IMG/VR virus record: IMGVR_UViG_2875697941_000003 | Length of the DNA: 54,981 nt | Source of the DNA: a virus | Taxonomy: Duplodnaviria; Heunggongvirae; Uroviricota; Caudoviricetes | Strand: one strand, 5' to 3' | In this document: positions 926 through 53,450 of the stretch, in pieces | How positions within the stretch are numbered: the first letter of the stretch is position 1 | Layout: each line of letters begins with the position of its first letter | Translations under genes and position numbers: made by a program | The notes under the pieces: generated by a model | What the model saw: only the letters and a program-made list of their open reading frames with translations | What the model was told of the DNA's origin: nothing | Database searches by the model: none

Positions 926-1204
926 GATGCTTTACGTCTTCCAAGCCCCCTTCCTTGCCGTAAATGGAAAGATACATCTAATTATAGAATTTATATGTTT
1001 TACCCTACGGCAGTGCTGGCCATTCAATATCCTGTGCAGTTGACGTATCAACACNNNNNNNNNNNNNNNNNNNNNGATGCTTTACGTCTTCCAAGCCCCC
1101 TTCCTTGCCGTAAATGGAAAGATACATCTAATTATAGAATTTATATGTTTTACCCTACGGCAGTGCTGGCCATTCAATATCCTGTGCAGTTGACGTATCA
1201 ACAC
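926..1204. repeat. Exact 129-bp tandem duplication (926-1054 and 1076-1204) split by a 21-N gap; probable assembly artifact
   Basis: Identical flanks on both sides of N run 1055-1075. Confidence 0.7.
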
Positions 1205-1880
1205 GGTTCAGCAATACCCGATACTTTTTCCATGCTTCCAGCAACGAGATTTCTTCCTCCGTTGCAATTTCCAGATCTGCAGCATCCTGAAGCGGCGCAA
1301 TATGCTCACTGGCTACCTGCATCAGGTTGTTTTTTGTTTCTTCCGCCTCCCGGATCCGGAACAGTTTTTCTGCTTCCGTATCCTTCACCCAGGCTGTGCC
1401 GTTCCACTTCTGATATTCCCCTCCCGGCGATAACCAGGTAACATTTTCCGGTAACGGACCGAGTTCAGAAATAAATAACGCGTCGCCGGAAGCCACGTCA
1501 TAGACGGTTTTTCCCCGATGATCTTCAACGAGATGCCACGATGCCTCATCACTGTTGAAAACAGCCACGAAGCCTGCCGGAATATCTGGCGGTGCAATAT
1601 CGGTACTGTTTGCTGGCAGACCTGTATGAGGCGGAATATATGCGTCACCTTCACCAATAAATTCATTAGTTCCGGCCAGCAGATTATAAATTTTTATGGT
1701 CCGTGGTTGTTCACTCATTCTGAATGCCANNNNNNNNNNNNNNNNNNNNNCGGTACTGTTTGCTGGCAGACCTGTATGAGGCGGAATATATGCGTCACCT
1801 TCACCAATAAATTCATTAGTTCCGGCCAGCAGATTATAAATTTTTATGGTCCGTGGTTGTTCACTCATTCTGAATGCCAT
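1155..1880 (-). CDS. tfaR: Tail fibre assembly protein (Tfa family); ORF inflated by an N-gap duplication
   Basis: Lambda Tfa-like N-terminus [24 protein letters not shown]... appears twice in the ORF because of the 1601-1879 duplication; lies directly downstream of the side tail fibre gene. Confidence 0.75.
1601..1879. repeat. Exact 129-bp tandem duplication (1601-1729 and 1751-1879) split by a 21-N gap; probable assembly artifact
   Basis: Identical flanks around N run 1730-1750. Confidence 0.7.
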
Positions 1881-4800
1881 TATGCAAGCCTCACAATATA
1901 GTTAAATGCGATGTTTTTGACGGTGTTTTCCGCNTTACCAGCAGCGTTAACGGTGATGGTGTGTCCATGTGAACCAATCGCAACGGAGTGCGTATGAGCA
2001 CCAATACCGACAGTATGCGCGTGTGCACCTGCAGATGCTGCTGTGCCGGACAGTGANTGGCTATGATTACCATCTGTACTGGTATTNGCTAACCACCCCG
2101 TAGACATACCTACTGAGCCTTGTACACCCCAGGTATTTTGACCTGAGCTTGTATAACCATATTGATAAGTATCTTTAAAAACACTGGGGTTAAATCGACG
2201 GCCATCTCTATGGCTGTGATTACCAGCTGCATTCGTGCTGCCACNNNNNNNNNNNNNNNNNNNNNAGCCTTGTACACCCCAGGTATTTTGACCTGAGCTT
2301 GTATAACCATATTGATAAGTATCTTTAAAAACACTGGGGTTAAATCGACGGCCATCTCTATGGCTGTGATTACCAGCTGCATTCGTGCTGCCACTTAAAC
2401 TATGAGTATGCGCACCAGTGTTATTCGTGGATTTAGTGCCGTAATCAAACGATGATGTGGTTTTCGTACCCAAATCCGTACTGGATACGCTGGCGCTGTG
2501 GGTGTGCGATTTAATGCCGTCCTGTTCCTGAGACAATACGGCACGACCACTGGCGGGCTTGCCCTTAATCGTCCAGCCACGCATATCAGGGATCACGCCT
2601 GACGGATAAGCGGCTGCAAGTTTCGGGTAAGCAGATTTGTCAAAAGTCTGCCCCTGCATCAGGGCATAACCAGACGGAACGGTATCTGATGGCCACGGGA
2701 TTGGTGCGCCGACTGGGTAGCTTTCTGGTGGAAGATTTTTCGAGGTATAAACTTCTGCCCAGTCTTCCTCAAAACCATAACCGTCTCTTGAAGAACGGTA
2801 GAACAGACCACCATTTCTGTAATGCGCCTTCATCTGCAGGGTCCGGCAACTTCCGACTCCGGTATAGAAGTTAACCAGAATATAGCTGTCGCCAGAGCGG
2901 GTGACATTGTAAGCGCCTGATTCGGCATTCCAGGGAACGCCACCATCCGCATCGGCATATGTATCCGTTGCCCTTCTGGCAAAAGCAGCCACATGCGCGG
3001 CGGTTAAAGTAATATCTTTTGAACCATCAAACTCAACCCCAGAAACCAGTCTTGGCGTTTGCAGCTTTGTTGCTGTCAATGCGTTACCGTTCAGACTTGC
3101 AGACAGCTTGGTTCCAATAACCAGTTCGCCGGTTGCGTTATCAATAGCAAACGGTCTTAATGTATTCCATCCACCATAAACATCACCTTGATTGGTAAGC
3201 AGCAGGTAAGTTTTAGCGCCATCATTACGCCATAATGCCCCATACTCCCCACCTATCATTCGAATCTGATTACCACCACGCGCTACAATTTCGTCTGTGG
3301 CAAAAAGTTTTTTGCACGACAAGTTATCGTTAACGATTAACGAATGAGACTCATAAAAACCACGCCCACTCTTAAAATCAAGGATAACGTCCGCCGCGAT
3401 ACATTCAGTCGCTGGATTTGTTGCCCCAAACTTATAGGTCGTATCATTAACAACGAGATCAGCACCAGGTGCGGATATTGACAGGCCATCTTCGATAAAC
3501 GCAAAAACAGGGAAAGCAGCGCCATCAACATAGAACACAGAGCGCAAATCATCGCCCTTATTACTCATCATTATTGAGTGGATGGCTCGTTCATTGTTTT
3601 GATATTGCCAGAACATTCCATAAGCATAACGCCCCCTGTCAGTCCAGCCACCAGGCATAACAAATCCGTTAAACTCGCAGTTATTCATCGGATCGCCTGC
3701 GGTTCGCGTTGCCGTGGTGATAATGACCCTTGATGCCAGTTCGCTTACTGAGCCAGCAGAACGCATAACAACAACAGGGTAATATTTTCCAGATGTTGCA
3801 CCTGCAGGAGCGTTAACCCGCACATAACGCATACCACGCTTATCAGCAAAGTCTGTTTTACTGACCGCGTTAATGTTGTTCAGGAAGCGTCCCTTATCGG
3901 GTATATCAGCGCCGTTCTGGTCTTTCTGCAGACGTTTCTCTGCATTGTCATAGGCTGATTTTACTGCCTTTGGCGTTGCCGCCAGCGTTTCAGACGTGCT
4001 GTTGGTCGCGCTGCTTAGCTGGATTATCCCTTTCTGTGCTGTCGTTGCATCCTGTGCGGTGTATTTCCCGTTAGCCAGGTCATACGCGGCCTTAACGGCT
4101 TTTGGCGTTGCCGCCAGTGACTCGGAAGTGCTATTGGTCGCACTGCTGAGCTGTACTATCCCCTTTTTCGTCGTGCTCGCATCCTCAAGCGCCACGGCGG
4201 ATGCAATATCCTCTGCCCGTTTTGCCGCTGTCTCAGCGCGCGTTGCCGCGGATTCCGCCGTACTTTTGCTCTGAGCTGCCGCCGTCGCACTGCCAGCTGC
4301 CTCTGTCGCCTTCGTGGATGCCGTCGTGGCGCTGCCCTTCGCTGCGGACGCTTGTCTGGTCGCCTCATCTTTTGAAGCAGACGCAGATGATGCCGATGAC
4401 GCCGCCGAACTGGCGGACGATGCGGCAGCCGTTTTTGAGGATTCTGCGCTGGTTTCCGACGCTTTCGCGTTCGTCTCGGATGTCTTCGCTGCGGAAGCAG
4501 ACCTCGCTGCTGCGCTGGCCTGTACAGCGGCTTCGCCAGCCTTCGTTGTGGCTGTTGAAGCGGACGATGCAGCACTTTCTGCCGATTTTCCGGCGGCGGT
4601 GGCACTGGCTGAGGCCTGCCCGGCACTTGTTGACGCGGCACTGGCAGACGACGCAGCCGCTGTTTTTGAGCCTGCCGCAGCTGAGGCACTCTGTCCCGCT
4701 GCCGTTTCAGAAGACCTGGCGTTTGTCTCAGACGTCTTTGCCGCCTTCGCGGAATTGCCTGCCGCCGTTGCCGAGGAAGCGGCACTACTGGCGCTTGATG

Positions 4801-5560
4801 ATGCGTTCGTTTCTGATGATTTCGCTGCCTCTTTTGAGGCCGCCGCATCCCGGGCTGAGGTGGCAGCTTCTGACGCTTTCGTGGTCGCGGTGGATGCTGA
4901 AGTGGCTGCTGATTGTTGTGACGCTGCCGCATTCGTTTCTGACGTTTTTGCCGCAGCGGCACTGGTGGCCGCCGCGCTTTTTGAGGACTCTGCAGCGGCA
5001 GCACTTTTTGATGCTTCAGTGGCCTTTGCTGATGCCGTTCCTGCGCTGGAAGACGCTGACTGAGCCGACGAAGCGGCCTGTCCGGCTGACGTGCTGGCTG
5101 CGCGTGCTGAGCCTGCAGCATCAGTCGCATGGGTTGCCGCCTCACGGGCAGATGTGCCGGCATCGCCGGCTGACTTCTTCGCGGCTGCCGTGTTCTGTGC
5201 CACTGCGGACGCGTTACGCGCCACCTCTTCCACCATCAGTTCAAAACGGCGCAGTGCCTCTGGCCGGACATCATCCTCCGTCATTGCACCGAGGAAATCA
5301 TTCAGTGTGCCCGGCTTTGAGTCCTCATATACGGTGATAATCCCGGCGTGTGACGGCGGGAATCCCTCCACCAACAGACTGACGCTGTACTGACCATACT
5401 CGACGTCCATTGTGTAACGCCCGGCTTCATCCGGGTTTTCTGAGGCCACTGTGTTCACCACCACCGTGGTGCTGTTGCGCCTGGCCTTTAGCTGAATGGT
5501 GCAGTTTTGTATCGGCTTACCTGCGCCATCTTTCAGTACACCTGAAATCCGTACTGCCAT
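1880..5560 (-). CDS. stfR: Side tail fibre protein (Stf-like): lambda-Stf-like N-terminus, Ala/Ser-rich repeat shaft, His-rich distal repeats
   Basis: N-terminus [38 protein letters not shown] matches lambda Stf; C-terminal [15 protein letters not shown]...[11 protein letters not shown]; contains N-gap duplication 2116-2394 and single Ns. Confidence 0.85.
2116..2394. repeat. Exact 129-bp tandem duplication (2116-2244 and 2266-2394) split by a 21-N gap; probable assembly artifact
   Basis: Identical flanks around N run 2245-2265. Confidence 0.7.
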
Positions 5561-5571
5561 ATTCCCCCCAC

Positions 5572-5598
5572 AAAAAAGCCCGCCTGAACCGGCGGGCT
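5572..5598 (-). terminator. Rho-independent terminator downstream of lom
   Basis: Minus-strand hairpin AGCCCGCC-GGTTCA-GGCGGGCT followed by TTTTTTGTGG. Confidence 0.75.
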
Positions 5599-5624
5599 GT
5601 CATAACACTGTGTTACCTGGCTAA

Positions 5625-6224
5625 TCAGAATTTATAACCGACACCAACGATGAAACTGTTGGTACGCCAGTCACCGCTGCCGGAGCCTTCATAAGCGACG
5701 TCAACGGCCACGGATTCGGTCGGGTTAAACTGCACGCCAGCTCCCCACGCCAGAGAGGTGTTACTGTGGCGAGCGTCATCACTTCCGGTCAGCACGTCGT
5801 GCGTTTTTCCCTTGTTGTCAGTTACGCGGAGATAATCCCCGGAAAAAGTCGACACACGGCTGTAAGCCACGCCTGCCATCGCATACGCGCTGAACCATTC
5901 ATTCACGCGTACAGACGGCCCCGCCATCACGCTGAACCAGCGGTTACGCACGGAATCTTCATGCCAGCGGGTATCGCTGTAACGGGTAAGCTGGCGATTC
6001 TTGTCTCCTGCATAGCTGAACGACGTCACCATCCCCAGTGTGTCCGTAAACTCATAACGGTATTTCACGTTAATCCCGTTCAGATCATCACTGCCGGGAA
6101 CGTTCGTCCGGGCATGAAGATACCCCGCGCTCAGCGTGGACTGATGTTCAGACGCCCATACAGGCGCACCGGATACGGCCAGACAAATGGCTGCGGACAA
6201 AATGGCTGCACAAACTTTACGCAT
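5625..6224 (-). CDS. lomR: Outer membrane beta-barrel protein Lom (Ail/Lom family), 199 aa
   Basis: Signal peptide, aromatic C-terminal residue (GYKF), lambda-Lom-like sequence and position between J and stf. Confidence 0.85.
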
Positions 6225-6248
6225 AATTACCTCTCGCTTTTCTGCAAT

Positions 6249-6273
6249 AAAAAAGGCGCCATTTCTGGCGCCC
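6249..6273 (-). terminator. Rho-independent terminator between J and lom
   Basis: Minus-strand hairpin GGGCGCC-AGAAAT-GGCGCC followed by TTTTTTATTG. Confidence 0.7.
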
Positions 6274-6291
6274 GTATATGGGTTATAAAAT

Positions 6292-9200
6292 TCAGCTGAT
6301 ACTGATGCCTGCGGTGGCTTTCTTCATCACCACAACCAGCAAATCGCTGATACTTGCTGTGGGATACCAGTCATTTACCAGCCATGCTGACACCGAAAAC
6401 TCCAGCGTCATGTGGCCGTGACCAGCTGGCATATCAATAACACCACTGTAAATCAGCGTATTATCCAGCGCGGTACGGTTATAAATTTCAGCACCATTTT
6501 TCTTCACTATCAGGCGGCATGAGGAGTAAATATCAGTATGCTCTCTCTCATGTTTAGCACCGCTGAATGCCACCGCCGGAATAACAATCTGCCGGTCAAA
6601 CGGCTGATCGTCATAAATCCTGACGGTAATGGTCCCTGATGGCCACCGCTCCGGTGCCCGGGAGTCCCGCGGGAAAGCCTTACCCACTGTTTTGACAATA
6701 TCGCCTTCAATCTGGTTGGCTGACAGTTTCCCTTTAATCTGACAGTTCTCATTTATCGTAACGTTGTTGAGCGTCCCGGCGTTCGCATTCACACTGCCAC
6801 TGATATCTGCATTTTTAGCGGTCAGCTTTCCGTCCGGTGTCATGGAAAATGCAGGAGGATTACCGCCGCTGGTAATGGTGGGAGCCGTCAGATATTTCAG
6901 GAACACTTCATTCATGAATATCTGATCACCCTGACCAACAAACATCGGTTTTGTGTTGCCATTTGCAGGATTAATCATCGCAATCCTGTCTGCCGCCAGC
7001 AGCACCTGACTCTGCATGCCGTCGGGGGTGTTCTCAATACCGGCACCGATACCCGCAATATAAAGGCGTCCGTCCTGCATCTGCTGCAGCTTCACAGCCC
7101 ACATGCTGTTCAGATTATTATTTGTATCAACCTGAACCTTCTGTATCTGCTGGATCGCTGCACTCTGGTCTTCCAGTTTCTTATTGACGGTCTGTGTGAT
7201 TTCATTGCTGACATCCGTAATGGACGTCCTGATTTCAGCCAGGTCAGGCGCAAGCTGACCGTTATCAATCTGCGTCCACAGCTCCTGAGCCAGATGGGTT
7301 TTCCCTATCTCGCCTTTGAAAAAATCCAGATAGCCGGATGCGTCATCACTCGGCTGACCAACAGCCTCCACGAATGCCGATTTGCCAACGGTGTTCACAC
7401 TGCGAACGTAAAAATAATAATTATGGCCCGGCCTGATATTGATACTGGCGGCTATCCAGTACAGCGCCGTACCAAGATAGCGGGCTGTGGTTTCAACCTG
7501 CCTGATATCCGCAATCCGCTTTTCCGAGAACCAGAACTCAAACTGTACCGTCGGGTCATAAACGGCAAGATGCGGCGTGGCGGTTATCTGAAAATAGCCC
7601 GGCGTCAGCTCAAGCCGCGACGGCACTGCAGGTGCGGCAATCCGGAACGATACCGATGCCGGATCGCCCTGCTGCCCCCACGCATTTACCGCCCGGACTG
7701 TCAGCCTGTAGTTCCCTGGCGCCAGCTGCGTGAAGCGGTATGTGGTTTCCGTCGTCCGGGCCGTGCTGACCAGCCGCTCACTGCCGTCATCCGCTGCCAC
7801 GGTCAGGCGAAGCAGGAAGCTCACGCCCTTCACCACCTTCGGCGTGTCCCAGCGCGCCAGCACCTGATATTCCCCGCTGTCTGCGGTGACTTCGGCGGTC
7901 AGGTGCTGCACCGCTGGCGGCGTGACACCATTCACCGTGCCGCTCTGGTCGCCGTCAAAGTGCGCCCCGTTATCCACGATGGCTTCTTTTTCCGGTACAT
8001 GCTGCACGGCAGTGATGGCATACGTGCCGTCATCGTTCTCACGGATACTCACACAGCGGAACAGGCGCTGGCGCAGCGTCGGCAGCTTCAGCCCCCACAC
8101 ACTGTATTCTGCAACGCCGTCAGGAACCCGGTTCACTTTCACCTTAAGTCCGTCGGTGACGGACTGAACCTCCACGCTGACCGGATTACCACTTCCGTCA
8201 ACCAGGCTTATCAGCGTGGTACCGGAGGATGGCAGCGTGATTTCACGGTCGAGCGTCAGCGTCCGGGTCTGGCTGTTCACCGCCAGCACGCGACCACCGG
8301 TGCTGATACCGGCATAGTCATCATCGCAGATTTCAATGACATCCCCCGGTACATGGCGAAGCCCTTCCGCACCCACGCTGAAGTCCACGGTCTGCGTCTC
8401 CAGCAGTTCCGTTTTAATCAGCCACAGCCCGGCGCGGTGTGCCTGCCCCCGGCTGGTACAGCCAAAGGCATCCATCTTCGTGACATTACGACCGTAACGG
8501 GCAATGGCCTGCGTATCTTCAACAAGCTCTGTCGCCGTCTCCCAGCCGTTGTCCGGGTCAATCCAGTTCACCTCAACGGCATTATGGCGGTCCTTCAGGG
8601 CGCTGAAGCTGTAGCGGAACGGCGCGCCATCATCCGGCATCACCACATTACTGCGGTTATAGGTCCACACCTTATCCGACGGTCGGTCCTGCNNNNNNNN
8701 NNNNNNNNNNNNNCAGTTCACCTCAACGGCATTATGGCGGTCCTTCAGGGCGCTGAAGCTGTAGCGGAACGGCGCGCCATCATCCGGCATCACCACATTA
8801 CTGCGGTTATAGGTCCACACCTTATCCGACGGTCGGTCCTGCACGAACGTCAGCGTCTGCCCGTTCCATACCGGCATACAGCGCATCGCCGAGCAGAAAT
8901 CACTGAGCACATCCCACGCCTTGCGCTGTGTGGTCAGGTACGCATTACAGGTGATGCGCGGCTCCGTGCCGCCAAAGCCGTCCGGCACTGACTGGTCGCA
9001 GTACTGGCCGATGACATACAGCGCCCATTTGTCCACATCCGCCGCACCAAGACGTTTCCCCANNNNNNNNNNNNNNNNNNNNNTCAGGTACGCATTACAG
9101 GTGATGCGCGGCTCCGTGCCGCCAAAGCCGTCCGGCACTGACTGGTCGCAGTACTGGCCGATGACATACAGCGCCCATTTGTCCACATCCGCCGCACCAA

Positions 9201-31200: not shown

Positions 31201-31679
31201 AAACAGATTTCACGCTCAATCTCACGACGAGTCATGAGACCTTTCCATTGCTTACCGCCAGCATATGTCCAGCGACGTAGCTGATCACATGCGCCTTTGA
31301 TATCGCCCTGGTTTATTTTGCGAAGAAGCGTCGATGTTCTGAAATTGCCAGCACCCACGTTGTAAACGAATGAGTAAAGAGCGCCGCGCGTTGTTTCCGG
31401 TATATCGACTTNGATGTACGGGTTAATTTGTCTGGCGACNGTGGCAAGGTCTTTATTCAAGAGTGNTTTGCATTCTGCTTTGGTATACGTTTTACCGAGC
31501 ATGATGTCTTTTCCTGTATGCCCGTGACATACAGTCCATACACCAACAATATCTTTGTATGGTATGTAGCTGACACCTTCCAGACCATCGTTACCACTTG
31601 GGCCAGTGATTAACACTGATGCTATAGCAATTGCTCCGCCACCAATAGCAGCAACGGCTTTTCGTAATGATGGAGGCAT
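31185..31679 (-). CDS. SAR endolysin (phage 21 R21-type, T4-lysozyme-like muramidase with N-terminal signal-anchor-release domain)
   Basis: N-terminus [26 protein letters not shown] (Gly/Ala-rich SAR TM) and C-terminal lysozyme sequence match R21; three internal Ns. Confidence 0.85.
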
Positions 31680-32080
31680 TATTCACCTCTCGCAGCCTTG
31701 CGCTTATCTTCTTTAATCTTGAAATAAAGGTTTGTCAGGTACGTCAGCAGGCCAAATACCAGGCTACCCAGCACACCTATTGCTGCCCACTGTGAGGGCG
31801 TGACTTTATCGAGCAGCTGTAAAAACCAGTAACCGGCACTACCTGCTGANTTATTCAAGAGTGTTTTGCATTCTGCTTTGGTATACGTTTTACCGAGCAT
31901 GATGTCTTTTCCTGTATGCCCGTGACATACAGTCCATACACCAACAATATCTTTGTATGGTATGTAGCTGACACCTTCCAGACCATCGTTACCACTTGGG
32001 CCAGTGATTAACACTGATGCTATAGCAATTGCTCCGCCACCAATAGCAGCAGCAACGACTTTTCGTAATGATGGAGGCAT
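31679..32080 (-). other. Chimeric duplicate segment: endolysin N-terminus (76 codons), single N at 31850, then pinholin C-terminus; probable misassembly
   Basis: ORF translation switches from R to S sequence at the N; copies differ by substitutions (VVAAA vs AVAA; LLDKV vs LLDRV). Confidence 0.6.
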
Positions 32081-32295
32081 TATTCACCTCTCGCAGCCTT
32101 GCGCTTATCTTCTTTAATCTTGAAATAAAGGTTTGTCAGGTACGTCAGCAGGCCAAATACCAGACTACCCAGCACACCGATTGCAGCCCACTGTGACGGA
32201 GTTACTCTATCGAGCAACTGTAAAAACCAGTAGCCAGCACTGCCTGCGGAGGTGCCGTAGGCAATGCCTGTTGAAATTTTGTCCATGGATTTCAT
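32080..32295 (-). CDS. Pinholin S21-type (class II holin) with dual-start motif
   Basis: [26 protein letters not shown]... matches phage 21 S21; two Met codons (32295 and 32286) behind a strong SD GGAGGTGA. Confidence 0.85.
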
Positions 32296-33092: not shown

Positions 33093-33521
33093 TCAGGGTT
33101 TAAAATCCAGCACCCCATTTTGAAATACTTTATATACTTCCGGCGAAGGGGGGGCAGGTATATCAGCATTCTTTATCGCATTCATCGCTTCACGACATAA
33201 ATCGAGGTCTCCACTTTCTCTTTTAACCTCCAGTAGAAGGCCATTCGGGGCCATATGCATTCTCAGTGTACACTCTTTTCCTGAATACTTACTCGCATCC
33301 CCGAACTGTTTTTCGATGGCGCTCTTGATTTGATGGGCATACAGACGGATATCCTCACTAACATCAGAAGTACGTTCAGATGAACTCACATACTGTGTCT
33401 CTATTGCTTTATCGGAGTAATATGATGTACGGTCATGATAATTTGTCGATACAGCATCAGTGCACCCGATAATAATCCCACTAATAATCAACGTAAGAAT
33501 TGATGCGCTACGAAAACCCAT
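33093..33521 (-). CDS. Lipoprotein with TolA C-terminal domain (TolA-III)-like region, paralog 2
   Basis: Signal peptide plus lipobox IIGC; C-terminus QIKSAIEKQFGDASKYSGKECTLRMHMAPNGLLLEVK...PEVYKVFQNGVLDFKP closely resembles E. coli TolA C-terminus; own SD GAGGAA and TATATATAAT -10-like box upstream. Confidence 0.7.
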   Translation of the reverse strand: MGFRSASILTLIISGIIIGCTDAVSTNYHDRTSYYSDKAIETQYVSSSERTSDVSEDIRLYAHQIKSAIEKQFGDASKYSGKECTLRMHMAPNGLLLEVKRESGDLDLCREAMNAIKNADIPAPPSPEVYKVFQNGVLDFKP

Positions 33522-34107
33522 TTTTCCTCACATATGTCATATAGTAAAGGATTATATATACCGTTGTTTTGGACGCTCAAACAGCGAATCAGATCAAATA
33601 AAACGCACATTTGTTAACATTTACACAAAGTCTGCGTGGGATATTCTGAAAGAATATCCATAATGTGGAGAGAATCTATTGAAGTGCATGGTGCCGGGTG
33701 CCTCCCGGTGAACAAAATGTTCGTGATACCTGTCGGCGACAGAAAAGGTTAATGGTATCACCCCACCGCACAGGGGGATTCACCATGCAGGAGTTTTCTT
33801 AGCAAACTCACTGCGCGCCCGGCAACTCCCAACCACATAAAATGCGGAGTTTGTGGTATTTATGCATATAACTCGCAGGAATTATCTTAAAAAACTGATG
33901 TCGATCCGGATTAAAAAGAAGCAGGTCATCATCAGATGACTGGAAAAAAGGAAAAAAAATACTCATCATACAGTTTTGATTGCAGGGATGAGCCTGCTAT
34001 GCACAATATGCAGAATATAAGCAAGATAAAAATATGCAGGCATATTATTTCGGATTTTGTTATTAACACAACCTTTTTAATAATCATTTGGCATACAATA
34101 AACCAGT

Positions 34108-34133
34108 CCAAAAAGAACCGCCTAAACAGGCGG
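34108..34133 (-). terminator. Rho-independent terminator on the late-transcript strand
   Basis: Minus-strand hairpin CCGCCT-GTTT-AGGCGG followed by TTCTTTTTGG. Confidence 0.6.
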
Positions 34134-34404
34134 TTGGTCAATACAAAGGATGCTTCGTCTTTATTATAGTAATCTGAGGCGTCGGGTGTCTTGTATCAGA
34201 CAACATATTGTCCCGCTAAACAGCGAATTACAAACCACCCTGCAATGATCTCTCATCTCATTTTATATGAGTTGACGACATCAGGATAACGCATCATCAG
34301 CCCCTGCCAAGAAATATCAAAACTCCCGCCAGCAATGTGTTATCACAATATTGTAAAAAAAACACAGCACCGAAACTATAACTGGTCTCTGTTATAATTT
34401 GGAG

Positions 34405-34482
34405 CAGAAAGACCAGTTGCCCAACTAGCAGCATTCTCCCCTGCTTTCCTGACGTAAAAAAACCGCATTAAGCGGTTTTTTT
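34405..34482 (+). ncRNA. Candidate small RNA (~80 nt) antisense to the late leader region
   Basis: Extended -10 TGTTATAAT at 34390-34398, internal hairpin AGCAG...CTGCT, ends at the 34456-34482 terminator; no ORF. Confidence 0.3.
34456..34482. terminator. Bidirectional rho-independent terminator ~80-100 nt downstream of the Q-like gene (tR'-like)
   Basis: AAAAAAACCGC-ATTAA-GCGGTTTTTTT: symmetric A-tract/stem/T-tract. Confidence 0.75.
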
Positions 34483-34562
34483 ACGATGTCCATGTCTGCA
34501 ATCCGCCTCGCGATACAGCTGTGCGAAGCATAGCAAAATTGAAGCAGTTTATACGTAAGAAA

Positions 34563-35105
34563 TCAAGCCATTTTCTCAGCAAATGATTCACGCATGGGAA
34601 TATATAGGGCATACTCAGCAACAGCTAACCAATTAGCAATCCGTTTTTCGCATGTGCTAAAACACCACTCTGGGTGTCCATCATTTAGCAATTCAGCCAT
34701 TTTGCGCTTAGTCATCCCCCGCCCTTCATAGCGTTGCCGGAGAATGCAAATCAATCCTGGATGCTCTGCCAGCACCTCACTTATGACTCGATCAATACAT
34801 AACGCCTCTGCATCAGTACAATGCGCCAGCCAGCTCTTTTGCTTGCCGTTGATCATCTCTCGCAAAAACGCTTCCAGCTCAGCTTTCTCTATTCCCGCTT
34901 TTTTCATTCTACGCAGGGCTTCATTAATGGCTGTTTTCGTCAGTTTTTTGGATGCCAACAACTGATTGAACATATTCCCTGACCTGCCACCGCCAATATA
35001 CGACCAGCGCCCCCACATACGTAGTTTTCCCTGAATCCAGACACTTTCCAGCGTGGTGAGGCGAAGGTGTTCTCCGCTTTTTCCTGTATTCGTTGGGTAA
35101 ATCAT
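34563..35105 (-). CDS. Putative late-gene antiterminator (Q-like) by position
   Basis: Last gene of the nin block, followed by terminator and late/lysis genes; family not confirmed from sequence. Confidence 0.45.
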   Translation of the reverse strand: MIYPTNTGKSGEHLRLTTLESVWIQGKLRMWGRWSYIGGGRSGNMFNQLLASKKLTKTAINEALRRMKKAGIEKAELEAFLREMINGKQKSWLAHCTDAEALCIDRVISEVLAEHPGLICILRQRYEGRGMTKRKMAELLNDGHPEWCFSTCEKRIANWLAVAEYALYIPMRESFAEKMA

Positions 35106-35392
35106 AAATGACCTTTCTTTCTCCAGATTTCTTGTGTGCGAAAAACCCCTTCAGCATGCATCAGGCGCAATTCTTCTTTGGTGTAATCGCTGGTTTTTAC
35201 CCGCCCGTCGATTAGATCGTGGCATGAGCTACAGGCTATCGCCGCCTGCATATCGTGTGGTTTTGTCGCTGTTCCGCACGTCCCCGCCAGCCTGTAATGC
35301 GCCAGCACAGAGGTTTCGGGATTGTGATTGCAGTAGCCAGGGATTCTGATCTGGCACATCTGGCCTTTAGCCGCTTTACGTAAATTCACCAT
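35102..35392 (-). CDS. Nin-region protein, YbcO-like (DUF1364, Cys-rich putative nuclease)
   Basis: Resembles DLP12 YbcO as I recall it (CQIRIPGYCNHNPETSVLAH...ACSSCHD). Confidence 0.65.
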   Translation of the reverse strand: MVNLRKAAKGQMCQIRIPGYCNHNPETSVLAHYRLAGTCGTATKPHDMQAAIACSSCHDLIDGRVKTSDYTKEELRLMHAEGVFRTQEIWRKKGHL

Positions 35393-53053: not shown

Positions 53054-53248
53054 ATGAGATATGACAATGTTAAACCATGTCCATTTTGTGGTTGTCCATC
53101 AGTAACGGTGAAAGCCATTTCAGGATATTACCGAGCGAAGTGTAACGGATGCGAATCCCGAACCGGTTATGGTGGAAGTGAAAAAGAAGCACTCGAAAGA
53201 TGGAATAAACGAACCACTGGAAATAATAATGGAGGTGTTCATGTATAA
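53054..53248 (+). CDS. ralR: RalR / Lar restriction-alleviation protein (64 aa, Cys-rich)
   Basis: MRYDNVKPCPFCGCPSVTVKAISGYYRAKCNGCESR...; position between recT and ydaC. Confidence 0.75.
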   Translation: MRYDNVKPCPFCGCPSVTVKAISGYYRAKCNGCESRTGYGGSEKEALERWNKRTTGNNNGGVHV

Positions 53249-53450
53249 AATTACCGCCACTATTGAAAAGGAAGGTGGCACTCCTACTAACTGGACAAGA
53301 TATTCAAAATCTAAACTAACGAAATCAGAATGCGAAAAAATGCTCTCAGGTAAAAAAGAAGCAGGCGTTTCCAGAGAGCAGAAAGTAAAACTGATAAATT
53401 TTAATTGCGAGAAACTTCAGTCCTCGAGAATTGCATTGTATTCAAATTAA
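53241..53450 (+). CDS. ydaC: YdaC-like protein (69 aa)
   Basis: ATG with GGAGGTG SD; size and order as in Rac. Confidence 0.6.
   Translation: MYKITATIEKEGGTPTNWTRYSKSKLTKSECEKMLSGKKEAGVSREQKVKLINFNCEKLQSSRIALYSN

Follow-up and report, generated by a model that had tools for sequence, protein, structure and literature searches.

The stretch of DNA analyzed here, called the window throughout, comprises the 54,981 nucleotides (nt) of the virus record IMGVR_UViG_2875697941_000003 and represents an Escherichia coli lambdoid prophage of the Rac type. The subject is the non-coding DNA that follows its Q-like antiterminator gene, which belongs to the DUF1133 family, encodes 180 amino acids (aa), and is the final gene ahead of the late/lysis region (35105-34563, minus strand). 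This DNA is probably the regulatory head of the late operon and would have the composition of a classical lambdoid cassette, i.e., the Q gene, the late promoter pR', a pause and Q-loading site, the terminator tR', and the late genes. A Q cassette has been defined as a Q gene that is followed by a promoter, a sigma-dependent pause element, a terminator, and then the late genes (Yin et al.). In the window a Q-family gene, recognized by Pfam and by a profile match to Q21, lies immediately upstream, an intrinsic terminator is located shortly past the putative promoter, and the late (lysis) genes are found 3' of the Q-like gene on the same strand. An earlier note on this DNA had proposed a tR'-like terminator, a second terminator in series with it, and an antisense small RNA. 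The control region of the late operon appears to be an ordinary one, and the tR'-like reading seems better supported than the earlier reader knew.

The first terminator, terminator A (AAAAAAACCGCATTAAGCGGTTTTTTT, 34456-34482, both strands), is the core of a larger, symmetric and perfect palindrome, GTAAAAAAACCGC-ATTAA-GCGGTTTTTTTAC, at 34454-34484, which has arms of 13 nt, a loop of 5 nt, and A7 and T7 tracts. A GC-rich hairpin with a 5' A-tract and a 3' T-tract is the signature of a bidirectional intrinsic terminator, and the hairpin folds equally strongly on both strands; termination itself is predicted. A consensus terminator scan missed terminator A, since its A and T tracts pair with each other, which lengthens the stem and leaves no free T tail. 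The stop codon of the Q-like gene is at 34565-34563 and the terminator spans 81-107 nt beyond it on the minus strand, in agreement with the distance of about 80-100 nt that the earlier note had given.

The arrangement was compared in 35 DUF1133-encoding loci (one genome per species, 52-100% aa identity), 31 of which were distinct. Among the enterobacterial genera covered are Escherichia, Salmonella, Citrobacter, Klebsiella, Enterobacter, Raoultella, Kluyvera, Buttiauxella, Pluralibacter, and Phytobacter. A hairpin with a T-tract was present at most 130 nt past the stop codon in 28 of the 31 distinct loci, usually at a distance of 64-115 nt. The background was much lower, with positives in 127 of 931 further windows taken from these loci (13.6%), and the binomial p value is about 2e-21, which is overstated since the loci are related. 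Within the 5-kb neighbourhood no enrichment was observed, neither of promoter-like sites (15 found versus 12.4 expected) nor of terminator-like sites (5 versus 4.2). Terminators A and B rise above chance because they are conserved in related prophages. A terminator 64-115 nt past the stop codon and a conserved hexamer ahead of it are thus a family-wide trait of DUF1133 loci, and the proposal that the hairpin at 34456-34482 is tR'-like is supported.

The hexamer is part of a conserved non-coding block at 34501-34562 (minus strand), which is a putative pR'-like late promoter region with Q-loading and pause determinants. The block is about 90% identical beside DUF1133 genes that are followed by otherwise unrelated DNA. 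In the window, the hexamer is TATGCT (34532-34527), and together with a TG at 34535-34534 it forms TGcTATGCT (34535-34527). The element GCTTCAATT (34545-34537) also lies within the block, and a TTGATT (34566-34561) overlaps the stop codon of the Q-like gene; all of these are on the minus strand. In 28 loci a hexamer of the form TA-N-(G/C)-CT occupies a fixed register; its T1, A2, and T6 never vary, and in about 20 of the 28 it is preceded by a TG two bases upstream. The invariant T, A, and last T are the positions that weigh most in recognition by region 2 of sigma-70. For most relatives, the spacing between hexamer and terminator implies a predicted RNA of 50-64 nt. The most widely common core is 34532-34507, i.e., the hexamer and about 20 nt, and it is all that the more distant relatives share.

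The extent of the shared DNA delimits where the Q protein could act. A Q protein requires a cognate site at its promoter (Yin et al.). In the prophages EC190486 and WP5-S17 and in phage 683R6, the Q proteins of which are 93-96% identical, the downstream DNA is common only to 34501-34504 (shared segment 34600-34501) and is unrelated beyond. Therefore, any Q-specific site should be in or beside the block, which is, as judged from these comparisons, the only candidate Q site that travels with the Q gene. The initial transcribed region is also conserved, a TA recurs about 8-12 nt past the hexamer, and a conserved TTGnnn...GCTTNAATT lies upstream, although any assignment of roles to these elements from the sequence is guesswork. 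The window-type Q gene is 8-12 codons shorter at its 3' end than most of its relatives (180 aa versus 187-192 aa, L016-L041 compared). The DNA at 34536-34566 (minus strand), which encodes the C-terminus in relatives, is non-coding here, yet the TTGnnn and GCTTNAATT motifs are kept. The retention of the motifs in this DNA suggests a constraint at the DNA level, e.g., a promoter or a Q-binding site.

The conserved elements can be read in two registers. A conserved TTG-containing hexamer (TTGATT here, TTGCAA in most relatives) precedes TATGCT by 28 nt and a T-T-N-A-A-T motif (TTCAAT here) by 17 nt. In one possible register, TGcTATGCT would be an extended -10, transcription would start near 34520, and the pause element would be located further in. 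In the other possible register, TTGATT-17-TTCAAT would be the promoter and TATGCT the pause element, as in the geometry of lambda, with a start near 34531. The latter register is disfavoured by the key second position of its -10, which varies between G, A, and C among the relatives. In either case terminator A would be the first terminator met, and the RNA would be about 65-76 nt long. With the hexamer position and the terminator, the short leader RNA is predicted at 34456-34522 (minus strand), with a length of about 65 nt (about 76 nt for a start near 34531) and its end at terminator A. A minus-strand sequence of 71 nt folds into a 5' hairpin and the terminator (-27.1 kcal/mol, z -4.6). Full-text literature searches with the sequences of terminator A and of the block found no paper.

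The assignment of the upstream gene is based on several lines of evidence. The 180-aa protein matches Pfam DUF1133 at 7e-107 and also Phage_antitermQ (PF06530), in the latter case by a small margin (26.4 bits, cut-off 26). A profile of ten DUF1133 members matches the Q21 structures 6p18/6jnx (E=1.3e-4) over two collinear stretches. Some records annotate the DUF1133 protein as antitermination protein Q, and the family was named Q antiterminator on HHpred evidence in one survey (PMC8136144). In addition, homologues in E. coli and Salmonella that are 83-88% identical to the window protein adjoin isrK on its upstream side, and antQ of Gifsy-1 was placed immediately upstream of isrK (PMC4825925). 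The label "Q-like gene" is therefore reasonable, because the PF06530 match, the Q21 profile match, the HHpred annotation, and the antQ-type position all point to it.

Taken together, the following course of events is proposed from the sequence. RNA polymerase with sigma-70 would start on the minus strand within the block, near 34520 if TGcTATGCT is the -10 or near 34531 if TATGCT is the pause element. Without Q it would stop at terminator A (34482-34456), and the product would be an RNA of about 65-75 nt, an analogue of lambda 6S RNA or StxS. Once loaded with the Q-like protein, the polymerase would pass terminators A and B, an STnc100-family element, and two TolA-like genes and would reach the holin and lysozyme genes. 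Terminator B would belong to a leader module that was inherited separately and carries a -10-like hexamer itself. Since it is perfectly palindromic, terminator A should also halt transcription on the plus strand, which would otherwise continue into the Q gene in antisense direction. Promoter activity, the start site, pausing, and Q-dependent read-through are predictions of this scheme; the sequence features, their conservation, their linkage to the Q gene, and the family assignment of the protein are observations.

Several results weigh against a cassette of this type. No recognizable -35 is present at 16-18 nt from TATGCT, and because of this lack a two-hexamer promoter scan gave no call for it. 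At the level of sequence, the conserved elements allow more than one assignment of the -10 and of the pause element, and no Q-binding repeats were identified with confidence in the region. The AlphaFold model of the Q-like protein is poor (predicted local distance difference test, pLDDT, 58) and a Foldseek comparison with the PDB gave no fold match, so that the kinship with Q21 rests on weak sequence-profile evidence. The cassette is absent in a few relatives, i.e., Rac-SA53 and the loci L017 and L020; in Rac-SA53 the DNA downstream of Q differs from that of the window, and the record carries no regulatory annotation. Two further loci (L011 and L015) carry an isrK/C4 module in its place. Lastly, the terminator stems of the family have mostly the same CCCGC/GCGGG sequence, and hence they offer little evidence of covariation.

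Terminator B is located further downstream in the late leader. It consists of AACCGCC-TGTTTA-GGCGGTT followed by CTTTTTGG and spans 34135-34108 on the minus strand, with the stem at 34116-34135 and a loop of 6 nt. The earlier note had placed a minus-strand terminator at 34108-34133; the terminator is indeed there, and only the upper coordinate was 2 nt short. About 28 nt upstream of the stem, at 34163-34168 on the same strand, lies the -10-like hexamer TATAAT, which the promoter scan reported as AAGACA-18-TATAAT. The core CACCCGACGCCTC, the hexamer, a distance of about 28 nt, AACCGCC-loop-GGCGGTT, and a T-run recur together past the tRNA genes of two late leaders, those of the E. ruysiae and EC190486 prophages. 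The prophage leaders of SK6988, E. ruysiae, and EC190486 share the stem but differ in the loop, and three other loci carry the hexamer as TATAAT, TACAAT, or AACAAT, but without conservation of the -35. The unit of hexamer and terminator occupies 34108-34191 (minus strand) of the window, 2312-2394 of L004, 3356-3437 of L010, and 2501-2590 of L007. It has no match to an Rfam family and none to the probes for the Pas small RNAs, and a search of phage records for the element yielded two records only, without informative context. A separate mosaic block extends from about 34191 to 33820; an 84% identical copy of it is found in a prophage remnant without Q beside iraM, and most prophages with this Q type lack the terminator B module. 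Terminator B may be a second leader terminator that is crossed by the Q-modified polymerase, or it may be the end of a tiny RNA of about 50 nt. With respect to the proposed two terminators in series, both are real and lie on the late strand, but they are about 320 nt apart and belong to different mosaic modules. Two relatives (L026 and L033) have two strong predicted intrinsic terminators in tandem, about 30 nt apart, about 55-110 nt past the DUF1133 stop codon and directly after the block. It is in such relatives that the predicted hairpins form a true arrangement in series.

On the plus strand, the perfect extended -10 TGTTATAAT is present at 34390-34398, as the earlier note had said, and it is the sole perfect match in the window. 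The geometry drawn from it is also correct: a start at 34404-34405 would yield 78-79 nt up to the T-tract, including a predicted 5' hairpin, and the hypothetical RNA of 79 nt (34404-34482, plus strand) is defined by this geometry only. No -35 accompanies the motif (the region in question is AGCACCGAAAC), and the G+C content of the region is 38%. Shuffling gave an expectation of 1.81 +/- 1.33 motifs in the window and at least one match in 85 of 100 shuffles, and therefore the motif alone is not beyond chance. The plus-strand sequence of 83 nt has a folding energy of -29.8 kcal/mol (z -6.7), which is dominated by the shared terminator. The motif shares bases with one arm of a conserved inverted repeat, the 21-mer TATAACAGAGACCAGTTATAG (34376-34396, minus strand, YTATAAC-N8-GTTATAG), and this repeat lies within a segment of about 125 nt (34399-34275) that is common to the window and an unrelated prophage type. 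Read on its own strand, either arm of the repeat resembles a -10 hexamer. Exact copies of the 21-mer were found in 59 IMG/VR contigs and in two flanking contexts only, the window type and a prophage type after tRNA-Gly. In comparison with the AST217-type locus, the segment is 73% identical overall and contains one perfectly conserved 25-mer. Many loci of the family have an A-rich 5' flank at the hairpin, with or without an antisense promoter.

Three explanations compete with a pR'/tR'-type cassette. It is unlikely that TGTTATAAT drives an RNA of about 79 nt to the bidirectional terminator and that this RNA acts in cis as antisense to the late leader, or pairs with the pR' RNA via the 27 nt of the terminator. 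A perfect TGnTATAAT is of a promoter type that can work without a -35, the symmetric terminator A presents its T7 on the plus strand 58 nt past the -10, and, like many small RNAs, the predicted RNA would have a stem-loop at its 5' end, then a single-stranded part and a terminator. The motif is also retained as TGTTATAGT, still a good extended -10, in the AST217-type context, the only other one of the inverted repeat, but there no terminator follows on that strand. Beyond its chance-level frequency, the conservation argues against a function: RM9975 and O157:H7 relatives keep the block and terminator A, diverge beyond 34403, and have lost the motif. Of 27 relatives, 4 have an antisense TGnTAnnnT at most 130 nt from the terminator, which is about the chance rate, and the window-type copies of the 21-mer are all at least 99% identical, hence without a sign of selection. 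Permissive Rfam scans of the region gave only matches far under threshold (isrK, OrzO-P, AgrB, and amino-acid operon leaders), which were mainly driven by the terminator, and the start codon that the RNA would cover is no supported target because the open reading frame (ORF) of 45 aa behind it is not conserved. The antisense small RNA that the earlier note had envisaged as a modulator of late genes is thus not supported. The motif may fire in this AT-rich DNA, yet such activity would most likely be incidental. Very unlikely is the extended version in which the inverted-repeat element (34376-34398) is a portable promoter for the plus-strand RNA of about 79 nt, which would converge with the short pR' RNA (3' overlap of 27 nt), pair with the read-through late leader, and set the threshold or the leakiness of the Q-dependent late/lysis genes. 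The ORF itself (34434-34297, minus strand) begins right after terminator A and encodes a hydrophobic peptide, and the plus-strand RNA would cover its ribosome-binding site and start codon. It would carry CAUUCUCCC, which is complementary to GGGAGAAUG of the ribosome-binding site and the start codon, although this stretch is mostly paired or in a small internal loop of the minimum-free-energy fold and not in a hairpin loop. A pair of the type I toxin-antitoxin kind is nevertheless extremely improbable. The similarity to the type I antitoxin RNAs OrzO-P (RF02083, 20.4 bits versus a threshold of 60) and AgrB (RF02891, 21.7 versus 40 bits) is weak, and a 4-nt indel breaks the frame in the AST217-type segment, where the start codon is outside the conserved part. 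In addition, 5 of 61 copies have a polymorphism of 7 versus 8 T inside the ORF, the spacing from Shine-Dalgarno to ATG is only about 1-2 nt, and RefSeq annotation does not call the ORF. This reading was therefore rejected for want of coding conservation and is largely refuted.

The third explanation retains Q-dependent control, but shifts it to the downstream pair. Terminator A would then be the 3' end of the early-right (nin/Q) operon, and the true Q-dependent unit would be the TATAAT at 34168-34163 with terminator B, which would yield an RNA of about 50 nt. In its favour, TATAAT has a spacer of 18 nt to AAGACA and a scan score of 10/12, terminator B follows about 28 nt on, the hexamer and terminator are kept in three other prophage leaders, and the block beside Q is without a -35. 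This explanation is judged to be improbable. The module is missing from most prophages with a near-identical Q (L005, L002, and L003), it is present in SK6988 without a nearby Q gene, and its -35 is not conserved. Moreover, a plain terminator at the end of an operon needs neither the spacing of about 50-64 nt nor a hexamer that is invariant across genera.

The proposed pR'/tR'-type cassette is embedded in the following gene order. The region 33500-35200 is 100% identical to many E. coli chromosomes, in which it is located near trkG. Upstream of the Q-like gene lie a DUF1367 gene (35991-35392) and a YbcO/DUF1364 gene (35392-35102). The late leader of about 1 kb extends from the DUF1133 gene to the first of two genes with a TolA C-terminal domain (33521-33093 and 32942-32547), and these are followed by a holin of the phage-21 (P21) type (32352-32080) and, next, the lysozyme and lysis-protein genes. 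All of these features are on the minus strand. The two TolA-like genes are paralogous and encode small proteins, and their slot between the Q-like gene and the holin is the cargo position of lambdoid phages (stx, LT-II). A promoter-like TTGAGC-18-TATAAT is found ahead of the first of them (33580-33551). Further along the late leader and just upstream of the same gene lies an element of the STnc100 RNA family (33632-33818, minus strand; Rfam RF02076, 86.6 bits versus a gathering score of 47). Its 3' hairpin (GGATATTC...GAATATCC) is followed by CACGCAG, where the family consensus has a U-tract, and this copy may perhaps not terminate.

At gathering thresholds, Rfam reported for the whole window only STnc100, RalA, and IS009. 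RalA is the antitoxin RNA of the RalR/RalA system of Rac and matches in full length with 225 bits (53247-53425, minus strand), and IS009 also matches in full length, with 221 bits (1189-1387, minus strand). The four published Northern probes for the Pas small RNAs of enteropathogenic E. coli (PasA, PasB, PasC, and PasD) and their complements have no match anywhere in the window with up to five substitutions. Of the 119 ambiguous bases in the window, some are grouped in five stretches of 21 N each near 1055-9083, and the others are isolated N. Part of the holin/lysozyme region is present twice, as a direct repeat of about 230 nt (31453-31690 versus 31851-32090). This repeat is probably an assembly artefact, because the identical reference genomes carry essD and rrrD each as a single and contiguous gene.

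If the late-operon interpretation is true, the standard lambdoid late switch would apply also to the DUF1133 (AntQ-type) Q proteins, a branch that has been little studied. The hexamer with its invariant bases, the conservation of the initial transcribed region, and the constant terminator distance of 50-64 nt would delimit a candidate Q-utilization site across enterobacterial genera. The cassette also predicts a constitutive prophage RNA of about 65 nt, of the kind that gave rise to the regulator StxS in Stx phages. If real, the antisense RNA would be a modest addition to phage regulation; its current support is the motif at chance level alone.

Several known systems can be compared with the arrangement in the window. 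Terminator A resembles other bidirectional intrinsic terminators in its A7/T7 palindrome with arms of 13 nt and in the predicted hairpin, which is equal on both strands, but no convergent plus-strand gene is present here, and the hypothetical 79-nt RNA is the only candidate for a convergent transcript. Antisense RNAs near Q that damp late functions are known from lambda (the anti-Q transcript from paQ, and oop). The paQ promoter lies inside Q and its RNA is antisense to the Q mRNA, whereas the candidate promoter of the window is downstream of Q, and its RNA would stop at terminator A before reaching Q and would pair only with the leader.

IsrK of Gifsy-1 is an RNA of about 77 nt with its own promoter, a Rho-independent terminator, and partial read-through into the downstream genes (PMC4825925). 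Related loci place isrK immediately after a DUF1133-type gene, as the predicted short RNA is placed in the window. The window, however, scores only 20.1 bits (plus strand, 34401-34482) and 20.0 bits (minus strand, 34456-34529) against RF01394, for which the gathering score is 50, while the true isrK genes of L011 and L015 reach 75.6 and 67.1 bits. In these two loci, which are from E. coli and Salmonella (L011 2575-2776, L015 2588-2768), a DUF1133 gene of 184 aa occupies the antQ position, and isrK follows immediately and then the C4 antisense RNA; in L011, isrK overlaps the a1/b1 target sites of C4. Unlike the window, they have a promoter TTGACT-17-CTATAT, followed by the C4 antisense RNA with a1/b1 sites in a P1 immI-type module, and the IsrK locus looks like an immunity module of the phage P1 immI type (c4/ant) that was set after Q. 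Homology of the window RNA to IsrK was therefore rejected, i.e., the score is below threshold, the promoter is another one, and the C4/immI module is absent. Judged by its location, the predicted window RNA is a positional analogue of IsrK and not a member of the family.

The arrangement also resembles the Q/pR'/tR' regions of lambda (6S RNA), 21, 82, phi80, and P22. The window Q differs from those proteins in being a DUF1133 member that is distant from Q21, and the putative promoter lacks a -35 and may work through an extended -10. The 6S RNA of lambda is 194 nt long, and the RNA predicted for the window is shorter, about 65 nt. Short RNAs from pR' to tR' were described for lambda, 21, phi80, 82, P22, and Stx phages, and among them StxS starts at the late promoter, ends at tR' directly downstream of Q, and is co-inherited with the Q allele (PMC7547250). 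No sequence similarity to StxS was seen, and its Q is of a different family (144 aa), but also in the window the block and the terminator are linked to the Q gene. As in the lambdoid phages, a Q-family gene is followed by the hexamer block, by a terminator within about 100 nt, and by lysis genes on the same strand, and a short terminated RNA, here predicted from the sequence, would be expected in the lysogen.

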